DNA from: Phoronis australis
Taxonomy: Eukaryota; Animalia; Phoronida
Reading direction: 5' to 3'
NCBI GenBank assembly: GCA_002633005.1
Contig: NMRA01000142.1
Coordinates: 664,860 to 728,859, forward strand
DNA length: 64,000 nucleotides
The notes below the pieces were generated by a model. That model was given only the letters and a program-made list of their open reading frames with translations, was not told the DNA's origin and made no database searches. Made by a program: the position numbers and the translations under genes. Below, piece by piece: positions 910 to 10,544 of the stretch (position 1 is its first letter; every line of letters begins with the position of its first letter).

Positions 910-2313
910 AGCCTATTTCACTAATTAAGATTCTTCATATTGTTGCCTTGATAACCTGAAGTAAGAAAGCAACAAGTTACAAAACACGACTTCAAAGCAC
1001 AAATTTGCCACAAAATTTAAAGAAATATTAGTCATTTTGTGGCACATAATCAAGCCTTGAAGAGCAGTTGGCTGTCAAACAAAAAAGCCTTTTCAAAAAT
1101 ATTTCAACTTTTTTTAGTCTAGTGTAAGATCATCTGAATGGGAAATTCACAGTAAAATAATTAGAATATTCCTAATATTTTTTGCACAACATCCTGAAAA
1201 TTGAACAAAGTTCCTTTTTTAGCAGCGTTTGTCAAAATGTATCAACGTTAAATCTTCACAAATTACAAAGTAGCCAGTTGAACATTCCTTTTAGTTCAGC
1301 AAAAGTCGCCATGTTGTTGGTGCCGCTGGAAATGAGACTAAGTCCAACGGGAATTCTCAGCACTTTTATCACTCAATAAGTAAGAACTGCAATGCTGAAA
1401 TTTGGTGGAAACTGTTGAATCGCACTGAATAGTAAGTAAAGATATGTCTTACTAATTTTCACCGTAAATTATCGGCGAAAATAATTTATACTAAGTTTTA
1501 AACTCGTAACTGATTCCGCTGTCGTCTAAGATGGCCGAACCGATCCAAACAAGTGAGCCAAATTTCGCCACAAAAATTGCAATAACTTTGCACTGCTTCG
1601 CTCGATTTTGATAATTATTCGATTTTTATTGAGTAGGATGCATTATCTTTCCGATGATAGTAGAAAATTTTTTCAAAACGAAAAAAAAATTTTGGTTCGA
1701 CTGCCCTACTCTGATCCGTTAGGAAAACTTAAAAGCTTCTTTGGGATGACAGTTTCAGTCTTTGCACTCAGTGTTGACCCATTTTTTGAGCTGTCAATAG
1801 CCTTGGACCTTGTAATCTGAGAAAATTCCAGGAGCTTCGAATTTTTAGATGAATCTGAGATATGGATGCAGCAAGAGGCAGACATCTTGCCAGAGTTGCT
1901 GTGCAGAGTCCAACACTCTTTCAATCATTCATCATGGCTTAGACAGTGTCCCAGCTGACACAAAACTGCTGTTTGCCATGCACAAAATAATGTCAAGAAC
2001 AAGAATTGATGAGACCTGGCTTGACATTCCTTAATGTCTAACTGCTGTACTCTACTGATTTATGGCCCTTGGTAATTGTCAACAATTAATACTATCCAAT
2101 ATAGTAAGTGGATGTATAAAACTTCGGCAAGCCAGCAAGATAACATCAGCTGTGAAGCAGACAACTTGAGGTGCCTCGAGGCAAGGCCAAGTGGCTGGTT
2201 TGACCGACGTCAGCGGGAGTTGACTCAGGGGTGTACCTGATAAGAATTACTAAACCTGTACTTATATCCTGCGGTTTTTGAGACTCGGTACAAGAAGGTT
2301 GGTTTTAATTCTG

Positions 2314-2319
2314 TTTATT
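2314..2319 (-). terminator. Viral polyadenylation signal AATAAA
   Basis: tttatt on the + strand at 2314-2319, ~120 nt after the last viral ORF and ~130 nt inside the terminal palindrome. Confidence 0.6.
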
Positions 2320-2441
2320 TGATCCTGTATAACATGAACAAAGCAGTCATTTTACATATGTTAAAATAGCATCGCATGGTGTAGAATGTGAACACACTTT
2401 ATATATAAAAGGAAACCATGCGTCCATATCCGCATAAGTAT

Positions 2442-2839
2442 TCAGTATAGAATTACAGAGACGTTGCAATTGATCCATAACATTCTATTAGTAATACGGC
2501 CATCCCAGAACAAATATTCTGTGCGTAATAGTGACCAAATATGATGTAAAGTACTGTCAAGTAAATCGAGTAGAATAGCTTTCAATGTTATAAAACACAG
2601 ATAATCTGCACATCGTGTTTCATCTTTACATGCTTGGCTCCAGTAATCAAAATAGTCCTCAAATTTATTACAACAATACCAAATCCATCTGCAGTATTTA
2701 CGTATACCCCTTAATATGCGGTGGTCAGTCCTCAGTATCCGTGTCAGCGAATTCGTCAATCCGCACTCTCTTGCGTGCAGGTCCCGCAGTAGGTGAGGTG
2801 CTCTTCTGTTTAACCGTCTGGGCCTTAGAATATTTGTCA
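2442..2839 (-). CDS. Putative spliced 3' accessory exon of the parvovirus (~131 aa, R/W/C/Y-rich), overlapping the VP C-terminus
   Basis: Open frame with no initiating ATG. It begins exactly at a consensus acceptor CCTGAT-AAACTTCCTGCTCTTTTCAG|TG (AG at 2841-2840), in phase 1. Confidence 0.5.
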
Positions 2840-4350
2840 CTGAAAAGAGCAGGAAGTTTATCAGGACCTTTTACATGAAGCAGGGCACTGGGTTGACGTA
2901 GGTTAGCATAAGCTGTAGGATCATCCGCAGCACCGTCGTTATTGTCAATAGGTATTGGTATTCTAGGCGCCTTAACATTGTGTAAGCCTCCAGATCCCGT
3001 AACCATTGAAGGAGTATAGGTTTGTCCTTTGTGTTCTAGTTGCCAACCAGACGAGCGTGTAGGAACGCGAATGCCCATAACATTTTCTGCCTTAGTGTGA
3101 TCATTGTCCGTGATTTGGTTAATGGACTGCTTTGCGTATTCGTAGTCAAATTCTGTCCAAATGTCACGGTCCGGGTTGACAAGGTTAGTGCTGTCATCAC
3201 GACTTCGCGGATATATTGTTACGGTCATACTCTTTTGGCAGAAGCAAAATGCTGAAATTTCAATGGGACGTCTATCGGCATCCATGACAAGTGGGAATTT
3301 AATCAGCCATGGTGGTACAGAATCATAAGCGCCCAAACCATGCGCTTGTTGGAACATCAAATGATTATGATCACCGTATGGAGTAAATTCTGTGCCAGCA
3401 ATCCGTTGTTGTTCAACAGTCACTGGTGGAGCGCCACCTACACCGCCATAGTCTTTTGGTTCATAGCTTTGTGGCAGAATCTTATGCATCATACTGGAGT
3501 ATCCTCCAAAGTTAGACCCACCGAAATTCATGTCACATAAGGCATCTTGCGCAGCAGAAGCAAATTGTAGTTTGTAGCCAAATGCGTCTTCGGCATCAGA
3601 GTCAGTCCATAGAGTTTTTGCAATGTATTGAGGATTTTTTACGTTTGGATCAAGTCTATTCCAACCCGTAATGTTAAGACCTGCTGATGTGTTGAGATTG
3701 AATCGCCTGTACGTTGGAATCTTTGGTGTGTTAGTGAAGGAATAGGTGAAGGTTTTGCTGTTCTTACCAGGACGCAGTTCGTCGATTTCTTTCAGACGCT
3801 GTAATGGTTTTGGAAACGATAGACTTTTGAGTTTTTTATGACCAGGACGTGGAACAAATATACCGACAGTAGGTAAATCTTTATAACCCGTAGCTGCACC
3901 TGCTGTATCATAAAGAACACCTTCCGTATAATGACCTGGACGCCAGCCTTTAGACCAAGTGGCATCTGGTGATCGAAAACCACAGTGTTCGTATTAAATC
4001 CTGTTATCCTGAAAACACATAACATACATTGTGTTGTTAAACTGTGTGTATGTTTCACCAGCCATTGCAGAAGCGCCTAATGCTTTCTTACGTTCCAGTG
4101 GCATCAGGTTGGAAAGGGTGCAGGAAACACTGTCTATTTGGTATTCGTCAGCTTCTCTGTTCAACTGATAGAAGTCCTCAACAGTCATGAAGTGTCCCAT
4201 ACCATTATTGTCGATGTATTTCCAGTTGACCCATGTGTTGTTGTCTTTGTAAGTAGTGTTCCATTCCTTAGGAGGTTATTGAAATTCAGGCTTGTCACAC
4301 TGTTCTATGTACATGAATGTGTTATACGTATAGGTTTTCTGATAAGCCAT
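2725..4350 (-). pseudogene. VP: Capsid protein VP (541 codons, two premature TAA stops), chaphama/ichthamaparvovirus-like
   Basis: Manual translation from ATG 4350 (MAYQKTYTYNTFMY..) stays in one frame through ORFs 3994-4200 and 2725-3531. Stops at 4276-4278 and 3994-3996. Motifs FNNTMYVMCFQD, ELRPGKNS and PPWLIKFPLV resemble chapparvovirus VP (FNNTIY..D, ELRPGKN, PQWFIK.IPL). C-terminal NLS-like PARKRVR. Confidence 0.9.
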
Positions 4351-5389
4351 TTAAGCGGTGTTCCACAACGTGTATAAGTACGTATGTCTTCCTGTGCCAA
4401 CTCTTGTGAGCGAACTAGATACCTAGATGTTGATCGTCCGTCACCTTGCTGACAATGTACGTCCACACCATGTCCAAGGCTTTACGAGAATGACGTGCCA
4501 GTTTTGTTGTTCCCAGTTTTGATGGTCCCTGTAATCCCTTTTGAAGCCACATCCACACATTCGTGACAAACCATGAATGAAGATGCATTACAGCGGCTGC
4601 TGCATCGAATTCTCGCTGAATGTCGTGTAGGTCTCCAAGTGCTTGCATAGTACTGTCTCCAAGTTCCGAACTTATGTTGGGCGTTGTGTCTACGGATGGC
4701 GTATCCATTGATCCATCCGCCTCTGATTGGTCCTGCAGGGTCATAGCGTCCATAAGTTCGTCCATCATTGTGCCAATGGCCTCTAATTCCCCCGTCCGTA
4801 AAGGTGAAGCGTTTGGTGTTATATACCTGGAACACCCGTCTTCGAAGGCGTCGCCATGGCTTGATAGTGTACATTGCAGTGTTGGATCTGTCCATTGTTC
4901 TGATTGCGGAATTGCAGGATTGGAAGGCAGTAAAGGTGTTTGTTTTCCAGTTAGTTCTGGTTGTGGAGCAGATGTCATGTCTTTGGCTGAACTCATTCTG
5001 GCAAATTCTGTTTGATGCATATCTTGCCCTGTCGGACCAATAGTTTCGTCTTCCGACAAAGGTGCGAAAGGTACGTTTGGAGCATCTTCTCTTTGTAATG
5101 GTGTCGGCAGTTTGACCGCGTCGTCCACATTGCGAGCTGTTGACACCTGACGTACACGTTCTGTATTTGTTCGTATTGCATCGCCAAGTTCCTGCACAGC
5201 AGCGACATTTTCGGCGCGAAGGTTTGCTGCATGTAGTGAGCGTCCTTGACGCATTAGATCTGCTATTTCGCGTTGCTGACGAAGTTCGTCCTTTGGAGGC
5301 AAGTTCTGTGTCTGCATCACTGGTATTGGCGTGTCTGGAAGTAGTGGACTGTTGTGTAAACCTGTTTGAAGATGTATCAAGCCATGCAT
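4322..5389 (-). CDS. NS2/NP-like ORF overprinted on the NS1 C-terminal third (324 aa to TAG 4415-4417; the frame stays open for 30 more codons to TAA 4322-4324)
   Basis: Long alternate-frame ORF in the same position as chaphamaparvovirus NP/NS2. Candidate phase-1 acceptor CTTCAAACAG|GT at 5362/5361. Confidence 0.75.
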
Positions 5390-7040
5390 GTTTGAATTTG
5401 ATGATCATAATTCGCTGACGTAGCGGCATTTCTTGATCAGGAACATATCGCCATATTTTATGATTAGACGTCATTATCAAGGGACAACCGTCCCAATCTT
5501 CAACCGCTCTATTCTTAACATTGATTTTGCAAGGACTACCTTCTAATATTAATTTAGCTTTCTCAACAGCTTCAGGAGTAAACACAAGCTCCTCCATTAG
5601 ACCAATGCGACGTTTTCCAACAAGACTGGCCCATAAGAATTGAACGCTATCAAGTACAACTTCACCACACTGTGTACCAAATTGTCGACAGATACCACGA
5701 GCATAATAGCTTTTACCGGCATTAGATTTGCCTTCTAACAATATACTGTTAGTTTTTCCATTGTCAGATTGCAGTATACGAGACATTTGTATGTGTATCT
5801 GATGGATTTGTTCACGCGTGTAACGTTGATGTTTTAATACTTTGTATGACCATTCATGATCAGGTGCATATTGTGCAAATTGTTCAAGAATGTTTTTGTT
5901 TGCGGTAATGGCAACAAGTTGGTATCGACGACAATTGTCTACAGTAGATTGAAAGTACGGTATCGATAATCTGTCTAATACCCATTGGTTATCTAAGTGA
6001 ATTAAGTCTTCCAAGGACATTGCGCCTGTTTCATTCATCTTAGCTAGAACGTCGTCAGTTAAAATACGACGAGCAGACAGTTTTGGTTGAACACTGGTAT
6101 AGTGATTGTTGTCAGGATTGCAATAGAACTTAGCAACCTGCAGTAATGGCCAACTAGAGCTCATGACTTGTTCGACGTTTTTGCAGAAGTATTTCATAAG
6201 TCCACCGAAATTACGCACCTTCTCAGCCTTCATATACTTGAAGGCTATGCAGGACAGGTTGAACTCTTTTGTTTTTTTACTCCAGAATCTGTCCAAAGTG
6301 ATTTTGAAGTTATCGACACGTGATTGTGTATGAAACATAAGATGGAAGTGTGGACGTCCATACTTTGTGCTTTCGCGTATACCAAAAAACTTAAATTTTG
6401 GTGGAAACAAAGCCATGAGTTCCTTCAATGAAAAATTTATTTTCAAATTTCCGTACATGTCCTCGACAGCTATAACAACCGATAACCAACTGGCATTAAG
6501 TTCATCTTGAATATAAGTATCAACATCAGTTTGAGTACAATCAAAACGTTTATCGTTAGTAAAGTCTATATCCGAAACAGTAGCAGAATGGATGTCCAAG
6601 AACCATGCGTTTATTGCAGTTTGATCAGTGCATGTTGAATTGCTTGCGGATGTTTTTGATACATCTCCGCAAGTCGAATCATGTCCAGCGCTCTGGCCGG
6701 CAGGCAGTGTGTTTTGTTGTATCACTATTGCAGTATTTGCGCATGGCCAAGTTTTAATCCATGTTGCCATTGTTTCGCGACGTTTGTAGTCGTCGTTTTG
6801 CAGTGTGAGTAGAGCTATCTCCGTGTGCTCTTTTTCTATTGGCAGAGTGCATTCGTCCTCCCACATGTGCATCGTCCAGCGACATAAAGGCGTCAATGTT
6901 CGAACCGTTCCGACCAGGTTGTTGTGTTCTTTGATGTATTTGCGCATTGTTTTCGCATTCTTGAGCCCCGCTCGTTCTTTCAATAGGTTGAGCAGTGCTT
7001 TAGACAGTATCACGAAATATTGGTCACAGTTAGACTGCAT
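4482..7040 (-). CDS. NS1: Parvoviral NS1/Rep (HUH endonuclease + SF3 helicase), uninterrupted 852 aa; ~913 aa if spliced to exon 7627-7795
   Basis: HUH motif PHFHLMF, catalytic Tyr motif KYFCK, Walker A GKSNAGKS, Walker B GLMEE, B' KLILEGSPCKINVKN and motif C IMTSN. Confidence 0.97.
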   Translation of the reverse strand: MQSNCDQYFVILSKALLNLLKERAGLKNAKTMRKYIKEHNNLVGTVRTLTPLCRWTMHMWEDECTLPIEKEHTEIALLTLQNDDYKRRETMATWIKTWPCANTAIVIQQNTLPAGQSAGHDSTCGDVSKTSASNSTCTDQTAINAWFLDIHSATVSDIDFTNDKRFDCTQTDVDTYIQDELNASWLSVVIAVEDMYGNLKINFSLKELMALFPPKFKFFGIRESTKYGRPHFHLMFHTQSRVDNFKITLDRFWSKKTKEFNLSCIAFKYMKAEKVRNFGGLMKYFCKNVEQVMSSSWPLLQVAKFYCNPDNNHYTSVQPKLSARRILTDDVLAKMNETGAMSLEDLIHLDNQWVLDRLSIPYFQSTVDNCRRYQLVAITANKNILEQFAQYAPDHEWSYKVLKHQRYTREQIHQIHIQMSRILQSDNGKTNSILLEGKSNAGKSYYARGICRQFGTQCGEVVLDSVQFLWASLVGKRRIGLMEELVFTPEAVEKAKLILEGSPCKINVKNRAVEDWDGCPLIMTSNHKIWRYVPDQEMPLRQRIMIIKFKHAWLDTSSNRFTQQSTTSRHANTSDADTELASKGRTSSATRNSRSNASRTLTTCSKPSRRKCRCCAGTWRCNTNKYRTCTSGVNSSQCGRRGQTADTITKRRCSKRTFRTFVGRRNYWSDRARYASNRICQNEFSQRHDICSTTRTNWKTNTFTAFQSCNSAIRTMDRSNTAMYTIKPWRRLRRRVFQVYNTKRFTFTDGGIRGHWHNDGRTYGRYDPAGPIRGGWINGYAIRRHNAQHKFGTWRQYYASTWRPTRHSARIRCSSRCNASSFMVCHECVDVASKGITGTIKTGNNKTGTSFS

Positions 7041-7067
7041 ACGTTGTTTTTTAGCTAAAATGAAAAA

Positions 7068-7619
7068 TTACTTACATGTAACAAATGCGCCAACCATTGG
7101 ATCCCAATTACGTCCACCAGGTGCTTGAACCCATGGTATGAAATTCGGTATTCTTAACGCACGTCTATATCTATTGATTTCTGCTTGATCTAATATTTGT
7201 TTACGTACTGCAGGATCCGTAACTGGTGTTCCATCTATATAATAATTGCCTGATGGATAAAATCCATAATATGTTCCTGTCTTTTCCTGCGCTTCTGTTA
7301 TTTTAGCATATTGCGCCGGCGTACCTTTGCCTTTATATTTAGGCATTTTTGGATATTGTACTCCTACGAGAGTTTCTCCAACGTATTTTACACCTATTCC
7401 TGCAAGTCCTATACAACTATGCCAATTGCCTTCTAAACAATCTTGTCCGAATGATCCTGTAGCTTTTCTATCAGCAGCACGTACATCGTCCGATGTAGAA
7501 GCCTGATCGTACTCTAAGTCATGCACTTTAGCTATTGCATCATCTGAATCAATAGGTTCTTCGTTAGTAGTAATATCAGTACCAGGACCTATCCACTTAT
7601 GACCAGGTAAATGTGGCAT
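7068..7619 (-). CDS. Parvoviral phospholipase A2 (VP1u-type) protein, 183 aa, located upstream of NS1
   Basis: Ca-binding loop LPGHKWIGPG, catalytic DAIAKVHDLEY and downstream AD, followed by GNWHSCIGLAGIGVK..E...GV.YP resembling densovirus VP1u. Confidence 0.93.
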   Translation of the reverse strand: MPHLPGHKWIGPGTDITTNEEPIDSDDAIAKVHDLEYDQASTSDDVRAADRKATGSFGQDCLEGNWHSCIGLAGIGVKYVGETLVGVQYPKMPKYKGKGTPAQYAKITEAQEKTGTYYGFYPSGNYYIDGTPVTDPAVRKQILDQAEINRYRRALRIPNFIPWVQAPGGRNWDPMVGAFVTCK

Positions 7620-7626
7620 AACTTAC

Positions 7627-7795
7627 CGACTGGTTCGTCCGTTGCTGCGTTAGGATCTATATTCTCCTTGTTTTCATCGTCCAAGTTTACTACTTCCGGT
7701 GAAGGTTGTGAAGGCTGTGCAGTGCAGGATGCGTCTACTTGTTCAGCTACTGCAATAACGTCTTCATCCGAAGCGTCTTCCCATATACCAGACAT
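7627..7795 (-). CDS. Acidic first coding exon (56 codons + 1 nt) predicted to splice in frame to NS1
   Basis: ATG 7795; donor CG|GTAAGT at 7627/7626; acceptor TTTTTCATTTTAG|CT at 7055/7054. The join reads ..DEPV-A-KKQR-MQSN in the NS1 frame. Confidence 0.75.
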
Positions 7796-8010
7796 CTATA
7801 ACAATTAAGCAACGTATCGTCTCATCCTTCATAATCTAATATGTCATAGACCTAATGTTAAGAAGGTCTTGACCATAACATTGCTAACTGATAAATACTA
7901 AATGTTCTTACCGTCCTTTTTGTCCTTAATAGCCTGAAAACCCGAAAACTGGCTGAGTCTCAATCCCTAGCAACAACTTTACGTCCTTTCTAAACGAGCG
8001 CTTTGCAGGA

Positions 8011-8042
8011 ACTGACGCTATCTTGACCTGCAGCGCCTTATA
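8011..8042 (-). promoter_or_regulatory. Viral left-end promoter: TATA box and initiator
   Basis: Minus-strand TATAA at 8042-8038 and Inr TCAGT at 8015-8011 (A at 8013, 29 nt downstream). A leader donor CG|GTAAGA at 7912/7911 and an acceptor TTGTTATAG|ATG at 7796/7795 follow. Confidence 0.7.
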
Positions 8043-8070
8043 TCGGCCCGGCCTTAAGCGGCCTCGAGGA

Positions 8071-8537
8071 GGCTCTGGGATGTTTGAATTGCCTTTTCTA
8101 GTGTTAGTGAATCTCCACTATTAATTAGTTTTTCTTGTATTTCCTCGTCTTTTACTCCAAAGACAATTTGGTCGCGTATCATTTCATCTGGAGGCAAGTC
8201 ACTAACTGTTCGATTGTTTCCTCCCCTTGTACAGCATTGTTGAACTTGTAGCTTTCAAACATTGAGTTGTGACGCGGTTGGACATGATCTGCAAAGCGTT
8301 TGTAATTTGCTTCGAGGTTGTCTTTCTCGGATTCTTCTAATGTCCAAGTATTAAATATGCCTCTCCCTTTGTCATTGACATATAGTAATAAATACATAAA
8401 CTTTTCCTTCTCCGTTTTCTTTGCCAATGGTCCAGCGAAGATCAAATCAACATGTTGTTGAGAAAGTCTCCAAGCTTCTACCAGGTTGCTCGAATCCCAG
8501 TCAATTGACGGCGGGACAGTCCTCCTGAATGCTCCAT
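8071..8537 (-). mobile_element. gag: Ty3/Gypsy LTR retrotransposon gag, frameshifted and truncated at the viral junction
   Basis: IFAGPL..KEK..YLLL.V..KGR.IFNTW, then DEMIRDQIVFGVKDEEIQEKLINSGDSLTLEKAIQ ending at ~8071. PBS-like TGGTGTCAG at 8550-8542 lies just before ATG 8537. Confidence 0.85.
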
Positions 8538-8550
8538 TTTCCTGACACCA

Positions 8551-8805
8551 TGTAATATTTTGTGTACTATCAAGACGAAGGCAAAAGAAACTAGATTATC
8601 TATTAAATGAACTGAACAGTATGATGTACAAAGCGTGACTGAGGCTACACAGCTACTAGCATGCACTATAAACATAATGTTGGTGGCCAAGACTAATTAA
8701 TGTGGTCGCCATGATTAATTACTCTGACAGTCAGTCTAAACAAATACTGGAAGTGGACAATGAGCTCATCATGTTACAAACACCAAATCAGCAAAGACCA
8801 TAACA
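8551..8805 (-). repeat. Probable 5' LTR of the Gypsy element
   Basis: Ends ..ATTACA immediately before the PBS. The candidate start TGTTAT at 8805 is uncertain because no second LTR is visible. Confidence 0.45.
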
Positions 8806-9909: not shown

Positions 9910-10544
9910 TCAGATGATACTCTTAGTGTCCAGAGGAATATCCCTGTGGACGTTCATGAGCGCCTGGGCAGAGAGTTGATCGTTTGTCATTGTTGAGTGC
10001 AAGAACATCTTCAGGTTTCGTAATGTGCTGAAGGGTCTTTCTGCTTCACAGGAAGTGTGCAGATGATCTTTACTATGGTGTGGACGTTTGGAGACTTGAC
10101 TTGACTGCATTCCTTGATAGCTTGGTGTGACGTTGCTAGTGTCTGCTCTAGTGCCAAGGTTTTCCAGTTGTTCTAAAATAAACATTTAAAGATGTCAATA
10201 TCAAATTTCAGTTTAGGTTTCAGTTTTATAGTCAAATGTTCACATCTCATGTACATAATTGGAATGTAGACGTTTCTTACCTTCCACAAAACGAACTCAG
10301 TATCCAGAGCTTCAGAACATGAACACTCAATTATCATTGTTTTATTACCTTCGTCACTTTGCGAACAATGTGGCTCACACAGCTGACTGTTACCTCCTGA
10401 AAGAAGATTTTTAAAATAAACTAACACTTCTTGTTTTAAGGCATTTAAACAGTTTAACCGCATGTGATTTAAAAATGGAAAATGTGTTACATTACAAGGA
10501 TTCAAACTCGCATCCTTTTGGTCGGAGTGTACATGCTCTTTCAT
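9910..10544 (-). mobile_element. hAT transposase C-terminal (dimerisation domain) remnant
   Basis: TSCEAERPFSTLRNLKMFLHSTMTNDQLSAQALMNVHRDI matches the hAT dimerisation consensus. Degenerate fragments lie upstream. Confidence 0.85.

Follow-up and report, generated by a model that had tools for sequence, protein, structure and literature searches.

Why should an integrated parvovirus carry its phospholipase A2 (PLA2) gene apart from its capsid gene, and how would a gene so placed be expressed? The question is raised by a stretch of 64,000 nt from Phoronis australis (contig NMRA01000142.1, positions 664,860 to 728,859), referred to here as the window and numbered from its first letter. An earlier note on this DNA had proposed that a densovirus-type PLA2 module was captured into an intron of NS1 and is expressed alone or by splicing. 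Our preferred reading, which we hold with somewhat better than even confidence, is that the locus combines a chapparvovirus-type NS1, NP-like protein and capsid with a densovirus-type PLA2, likely captured, that likely acts as a stand-alone enzyme outside the capsid. From sequence analysis, the detachment of PLA2 from the capsid gene is well supported, and its nesting within a 572-nt NS1 intron is plausible.

The integrated element and its borders

The element is an integrated monosense parvovirus genome of about 5.9 kb on the minus strand (2182..8061), delimited by the ORF map and by identical 8-bp words at its borders; all the genes and signals described below lie on the same strand. Read 5' to 3', it comprises a short acidic ORF, PLA2, NS1 with an overlapping NP-like ORF, and VP, followed by an AATAAA (2664..2669) that is a candidate polyadenylation signal. 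The palindromic 8-bp word CCTCGAGG stands at the 5' junction (8062..8069), and an identical copy stands at the 3' junction (2174..2181). These words could be a target-site duplication. One contig from the DNA runs departs from the window at 2174 and continues with 30 other letters, which may represent another site of insertion or what is left of a terminus. Neither end of the element yielded a terminal hairpin above shuffled sequence (z -0.13 to -0.55), and the termini may have been lost at integration.

Repeat-rich eukaryotic DNA, with transposon relics and high-depth repeats, flanks the element on its outer sides. The left flank (8070-8500, minus strand) resembles what we take to be a decayed gag fragment of an LTR retrotransposon, and the virus may have inserted into this older element; a 72-aa ORF in the same flank (8179-8397) has no Pfam match. 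A fragment of a hAT transposase dimerisation domain was also found at 9910-10185 (minus strand, E 2.6e-04).

A chapparvovirus-like backbone

NS1 (4482..7054) was recognized by Pfam (Parvo_NS1, PF01057, 6e-16) and by its chapparvovirus matches, and an Atlas look-up confirmed it as parvoviral. Counted from its own ATG at 7040 it has 852 aa, with the HUH motif at residue 231, motif III at about 283 and Walker A at 437. The gene was placed by a cross-comparison of NS1, VP, PLA2 and NP covering 313 ORFs from 26 loci. Its best matches are five chapparvovirus genomes, for which the alignment spans the nuclease as well as the helicase (E 2e-20 to 2e-28); with densovirus-like loci only the helicase aligns, at E 2e-08 or worse. 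The five genomes had been found by capsid-motif scans, from which two of seven loci (L023 and L025), with no parvoviral match, were left out. In a helicase tree of 15 rows, the window lies outside the clade of the five chapparvoviruses, at 33% identity or less. The branch uniting them with the window is supported at 77/53, and a placement of the window with seven densovirus loci is not rejected by the AU test (p 0.32). The NS1 and VP matches, taken with this weak tree, thus define a backbone that can be called chapparvovirus-like, whether or not it lies inside the chapparvoviruses.

The NP-like ORF (ORF324, 324 aa, 4415..5389 on the ORF map) overlaps the 3' end of NS1, in the position of NP/NS2, and the overlap is unlikely to have arisen by chance (7e-14 and 5e-04). 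It has its own ATG at 5389 and a candidate phase-1 acceptor at 5335. ORF324 weakly matches the NP ORFs of four of the five chapparvoviruses (E 6e-04 to 4e-03); pairwise BLASTP against chapparvovirus NP gave nothing significant.

VP (2725..4350, 541 codons) is of chapparvovirus type, as judged by its PDB and chapparvovirus matches, and lacks PLA2. Two in-frame stops (4276-4278 and 3994-3996) break it, and it was searched with X in their place. The SsChPV capsid 9NEK was its sole significant PDB match (E 8e-10), all five chapparvovirus VPs matched it, and no Denso_VP4 domain was found in it. Residue 42 of VP pairs with residue 33 of 9NEK, a nine-residue offset that sets Met1 near register with the SsChPV capsid; the C-terminal tail, about 157 aa long, depends on a second, non-significant block of the 9NEK alignment.

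An intact phospholipase ORF of densovirus type

The PLA2 ORF (7068..7619, ATG at 7619; ORF map and Pfam) is intact and encodes 183 aa, of which residues 1 to about 92 form a parvoviral PLA2 domain (PF08398, E 5e-08). The calcium loop WIGPG, the motif D27-x-x-A-x-x-H33-D34-x-x-Y37 and the distal D50 are all preserved, and D27, H33, D34, Y37 and D50 are invariant across 25 aligned rows. A model of the domain reached pLDDT 81-97 over residues 1-90. Fold comparison gave 42 matches at E<=0.001, mostly VP1/ORF1 entries of densoviruses and unclassified parvoviruses; the model built from the 25-sequence alignment had no PDB match at E<=0.001, and another, built from a two-sequence alignment, was discarded (pLDDT 36). 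With its catalytic motifs intact, the ORF may encode an active, Ca-dependent PLA2.

An exhaustive search returned 556 relatives of PLA2, of which the best 150 were listed. Among the matches listed, 17 of the 20 long close homologues scanned carry Denso_VP4, in keeping with the densovirus type that had been assigned to the enzyme. None of 153 PLA2-bearing proteins compared matches the VP, NS1 or ORF324 of the element, and PLA2 is present in none of the five chapparvovirus genomes. Since PLA2 is densovirus-like and NS1 and VP are chapparvovirus-like, capture is likely, and recombination is its likely route. Built by a quick method from 154 rows and 95 columns, the PLA2 tree is mostly unresolved and points to no donor.

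The best PLA2 match (P0001) is a stand-alone protein of 194 aa, 43% identical over its whole length and encoded on a contig of 5592 nt, about the size of the element; the PLA2 tree does not join it with the window protein. Among the 153 proteins compared, it alone shares the C-terminal half of the window protein (roughly 90 aa, E 4e-12). Judged from the protein alone, its tail could be encoded by a phase-1 donor with a pyrimidine tract behind it, the arrangement seen in the window. The tail is only suggestive, since 11 of the 88 short matches examined pass the same donor-tripeptide test. The existence of this homologue suggests that the stand-alone PLA2 gene predates integration.

Further relatives were sought in several ways. 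Protein searches by word index, for which PLA2, NS1 and the helicase region served as queries, gave no matches, single-protein locus scans gave no close relative, and scans with an alignment of the window protein and P0001 gave no relatives in either sequence collection. One marginal match (L001) lacks a parvoviral layout. A scan with a broad alignment recovered 18 PLA2 loci, nine with a detectable helicase and nine that are short or have no detectable NS1; in none of the nine helicase-bearing loci does PLA2 stand as its own unit 5' of a same-strand NS1. Other genomes with PLA2 5' of NS1, which the earlier note had proposed to look for, are absent from these nine loci, but the megaparvoviruses provide them (PMC13426907).

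Splice signals around PLA2

PLA2 is preceded by an acidic exon 1 (7627..7795 on the ORF map) of 169 coding nt, or 56 codons, with 27% D/E and ending in phase 1. Unspliced, it forms a 68-aa ORF that overlaps the start of PLA2 by 31 nt; the exon has no match in Pfam or to the chapparvovirus genomes. A candidate leader intron of 116 nt (7796..7911), predicted from a donor-like site at 7911 and a YAG at 7796, has its acceptor abutting the ATG of this exon at 7795. The p15 ATG of MKPV likewise abuts an acceptor (PMC6999912); by this analogy, the acidic ORF may stand where p15 does, PLA2 then being an additional insertion.

The predicted donor D1 (7621..7626, CG/GTAAGT, phase 1) closes exon 1, and the PLA2 ATG at 7619 sits 7 nt past its position at 7626. 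The predicted acceptor A1 (7055..7067), which is T-rich and leads into the NS1 frame, begins directly after the PLA2 stop at 7068 and ends at 7055, 13 nt further on. The resulting D1-A1 intron would measure 572 nt, with 96.5% of it taken up by the PLA2 ORF, and would join exon 1 in phase to the open NS1 frame. All these positions agree with those given earlier for this locus. By simple ad hoc scores, the acceptor at 7055 ranks joint first among 144 AGs and joint second among 162 YAGs.

A further predicted donor, D2 (7070..7075, GTAAGT, phase 1), which the earlier note did not mention, lies at the 3' end of PLA2. A distance of just 21 nt separates it from the NS1 acceptor and is too short for splicing to that site, so that D2, if used, would splice further downstream. 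The element holds two copies of GTAAGT, against 1.8 expected, and each lies within 10 nt of an end of the PLA2 ORF; the joint chance of this arrangement, a post hoc figure, is about 9e-06.

Proposed expression and alternatives

In MKPV, the major transcripts all start in one region, and alternative splicing gives rise to p15, NS1, NS2 and VP (PMC6999912). By analogy, transcripts of the element would start at its left end. Splicing from D1 (7626) to A1 (7055) would remove PLA2 and produce NS1 with an acidic N-terminal exon, and the PLA2 ORF would be present on RNAs that retain this intron. If D2 (7075) were joined to one of two YAG sites before VP (4449 or 4392), PLA2 would stop within two codons and VP would keep its own ATG, so that the enzyme would be free and expressed together with the capsid mRNA. 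Of the proposed capture into an intron, the capture is retained as likely on the mismatch between domain and backbone; the oddity of the location had been overstated, since chapparvoviruses splice several products from one 5' region (PMC6999912). One weak point of the scheme is ribosome access to the PLA2 start, because the unspliced mRNA holds four ATGs (7795, 7784, 7767 and 7677) between the start of exon 1 and the PLA2 ATG; another is that the phase of D2 equally suits candidate acceptors of ORF324.

What such an enzyme might do is suggested by vpORF3 in AdSDV (the Acheta domesticus segmented densovirus), which is absent from capsids and has been proposed to aid egress (PMC10267136). By this analogy, the PLA2 would likely damage membranes to help the virus leave the cell or spread, rather than act from the virion in endosomal escape.

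A wider version of this scheme, which we consider doubtful, makes the element a sister lineage of the chapparvoviruses that captured a densovirus PLA2 independently of megaparvoviruses and AdSDV and set it as a cassette between two in-phase donors, so that the choice of splice sites would switch between NS1, free PLA2 and a PLA2-NS2 fusion. The last of these products could also be the main one. If the PLA2 ORF were mainly an exon, D2 joined to 5335 or a neighbour would yield a fusion of PLA2 with NS2/NP, non-structural and about 490 aa long, and D1 joined to the same acceptor would give NS2 without PLA2. Both donors are indeed in phase 1, and 5335, with pyrimidines at 10 of 15 positions, leads into ORF324, where 305 codons are open. 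Splicing also produces chapparvovirus NS2, which ends in the frame of NP (PMC6999912), and the PLA2 ORFs of megaparvoviruses too end in a donor (PMC13426907). However, ORF324 has an ATG of its own, AGs in its frame are common, which makes the phase match weak evidence, and the 153 PLA2 proteins compared include no fused homologue, although gene callers would miss spliced products. The literature searched held no description of a non-structural phospholipase fusion in any parvovirus, and we regard a mainly exonic PLA2 as unlikely.

Rather unlikely, too, is that D1 goes unused, in which case NS1 would begin at ATG 7040. PLA2, like the acidic ORF, would then be a plain upstream ORF, detached from the capsid gene but not intronic. 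NS1 could start at this ATG, which lies upstream of both nuclease motifs, and the product would retain every nuclease and helicase motif. The perfect GTAAGT of D1, the top-ranked T-rich acceptor within the 13-nt gap and the matching phase nevertheless argue for the predicted intron.

Is PLA2 part of an ordinary VP1?

A rival reading is an ordinary split VP1, with PLA2 spliced onto VP in the living virus. The strong donor at the end of PLA2 is what such a gene would have, split PLA2/VP genes are frequent in densoviruses (PMC10267136), and the in-frame TAA found immediately 5' of the VP ATG at 4350 might have arisen after integration, as 23 open codons lie upstream of it and this copy has further nonsense lesions. 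The PLA2 stop is 2718 nt from the VP ATG, so that the distance of some 2.7 kb and the preceding TAA are as the earlier note had them. Between 7054 and 4351, no AG opens a stop-free path in the VP frame up to the ATG. An in-frame join of PLA2 to VP is therefore impossible in this copy. The best YAG in the open stretch, 4392, forms a stop codon with D2, and joining D2 to 4305, inside VP, creates a stop at the junction. A contig with 10 differences from the window over 3610-4739 has the same letters at the TAA (4351-4353), which is weak evidence against a late origin of this stop since the contig shares the integration. Moreover, Met1 of the SsChPV capsid belongs to strand B, with neither an N-terminal extension nor a proper fivefold channel (PMC12115719). 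The absence of a stop-free AG and the position of VP Met1 near the SsChPV register thus make an ordinary VP1 improbable.

Is the gene order genuine?

Contigs bridge the PLA2-NS1 junction in all four DNA runs; these derive from a single sample, from which the window itself may stem. The bridging thus excludes misassembly, but it bears little on rearrangement at integration. Contigs in three of the four runs also join 7696 to 6374, which denotes a tandem duplication of 1323 nt in some copy; it takes in the PLA2 ORF entirely, along with some of exon 1 and the 5' end of NS1, and is absent from the window. That misassembly or concatemer rearrangement at or after integration produced the gene order is very improbable even though this joint reveals a copy duplicated across PLA2, because the PLA2-NS1 order is internal to the duplicated unit and bridged in every run, the 13 nt from the PLA2 stop to the NS1 acceptor leave no space for a terminus, and P0001 resembles the window PLA2 in length and end. 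The narrow gap and P0001 together argue for a native layout.

Comparison with known parvoviruses

Megaparvoviruses, the lineage that includes Swazi bat-associated megaparvovirus 1, comprise 12 viruses and eight beetle EVEs whose layout runs from a 5' PLA2 ORF with a terminal donor through a hypothetical gene to NS1 and a VP of hamavirus type; horizontal capture has been proposed for their PLA2 (PMC13426907, for this and the following comparison). The element shares with them a monosense, enlarged genome and a separate PLA2 ORF 5' of NS1 with a terminal donor. Their VP, of hamavirus type, without PLA2 and with a long C-terminal domain, has 504-577 aa, and that of the element 541 codons. The core of the present finding is thus already in print, and the novelty implied by the earlier note was too high: a 5' PLA2 with a donor and a PLA2-less hamavirus-type VP had been published for these 12 viruses and eight EVEs.

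There are also differences. Megaparvoviruses have a large conserved hypothetical ORF between PLA2 and NS1, whereas in the element this cassette is absent and the PLA2 stop is followed by the acceptor after 13 nt and by the NS1 ATG after 27 nt. Their NS1 measures 561-611 aa, compared with at least 852 aa plus the NP-like overlap in the element, and their genome about 6.4 kb, compared with 5.9 kb. Unlike them, the element has a short acidic coding exon (a 68-codon ORF when unspliced) and a donor ahead of PLA2. On termini the comparison says little: theirs are homotelomeric and palindromic, and those of the element, where no hairpin exceeded shuffles, may have been lost at integration. The element works like a megaparvovirus but fails two defining features; the searches made with its proteins retrieved no megaparvovirus sequence. 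What is new with respect to megaparvoviruses is the lack of the hypothetical cassette, the NP-like overlap, the longer NS1, and the exon and donor before PLA2.

Chapparvoviruses (Hamavirinae, with SsChPV and MKPV) have in common with the element small 5' ORFs, NS1, an overlapping NP and VP (PMC6631224, PMC6999912, PMC12115719). Their NS1 and VP are homologous to those of the element, and the homology of NP is weak. One of the loci compared (L020), whose VP and 807-aa NS match SsChPV, has a long NS1 N-terminus before HUH, as does the element. Chapparvovirus genomes measure about 4-4.5 kb (4.0-4.4 kb in the five compared) and none of the five has PLA2, in contrast to the 5.9 kb of the element with its PLA2.

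The statement in the earlier note that AdSDV has a separately encoded PLA2 acquired by recombination proved correct (PMC10267136). This virus and the element share a densovirus-derived PLA2 in an ORF of its own. AdSDV is, however, a bipartite brevihamaparvovirus with a PLA2 ORF of 347 aa downstream of VP and under its own promoter (PMC10267136), whereas the element has one segment and PLA2 upstream of NS1. The VP1u PLA2 of Densovirinae, whether fused or split into cap1/cap2, is about 40-58% identical in its domain over roughly 90 aa; there the enzyme is joined by fusion or splicing to a Denso_VP4 capsid, whereas the element has no in-frame route and another VP type.

The literature searched, which lies mostly outside subscription papers, holds no report of a PLA2 ORF placed between a donor and an acceptor of NS1, and the layout does not appear in the available portions of PMC6631224, PMC9896142, PMC12297876, PMC11357303, PMC8964545, PMC13517815 and PMC9994595. 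In the papers searched, only two lineages, AdSDV and megaparvoviruses, have parvoviral PLA2 away from the capsid. A third layout, found on a backbone of chapparvovirus type, suggests that viruses with capsids unable to display an N-terminal enzyme regain PLA2 for a non-virion job, perhaps repeatedly. With an intact, small ORF and a natural homologue, the idea of a free parvoviral egress enzyme is directly testable, and the element also helps to place the deep branches around Hamavirinae.

Other PLA2 loci

Two further observations concern other PLA2 loci and proteins. A metagenome contig (L017) carries a monosense NS1 / PLA2-VP1 unit twice in tandem (1579-8644), 4366 nt apart, and its helicase and that of L019 branch away from the other densovirus-like loci. 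Five short parvoviral PLA2 proteins (P0004, P0021, P0090, P0098 and P0143), from a set of planthopper, assassin bug, firefly, beetle and tick genomes, are annotated as host genes and likely derive from EVEs.
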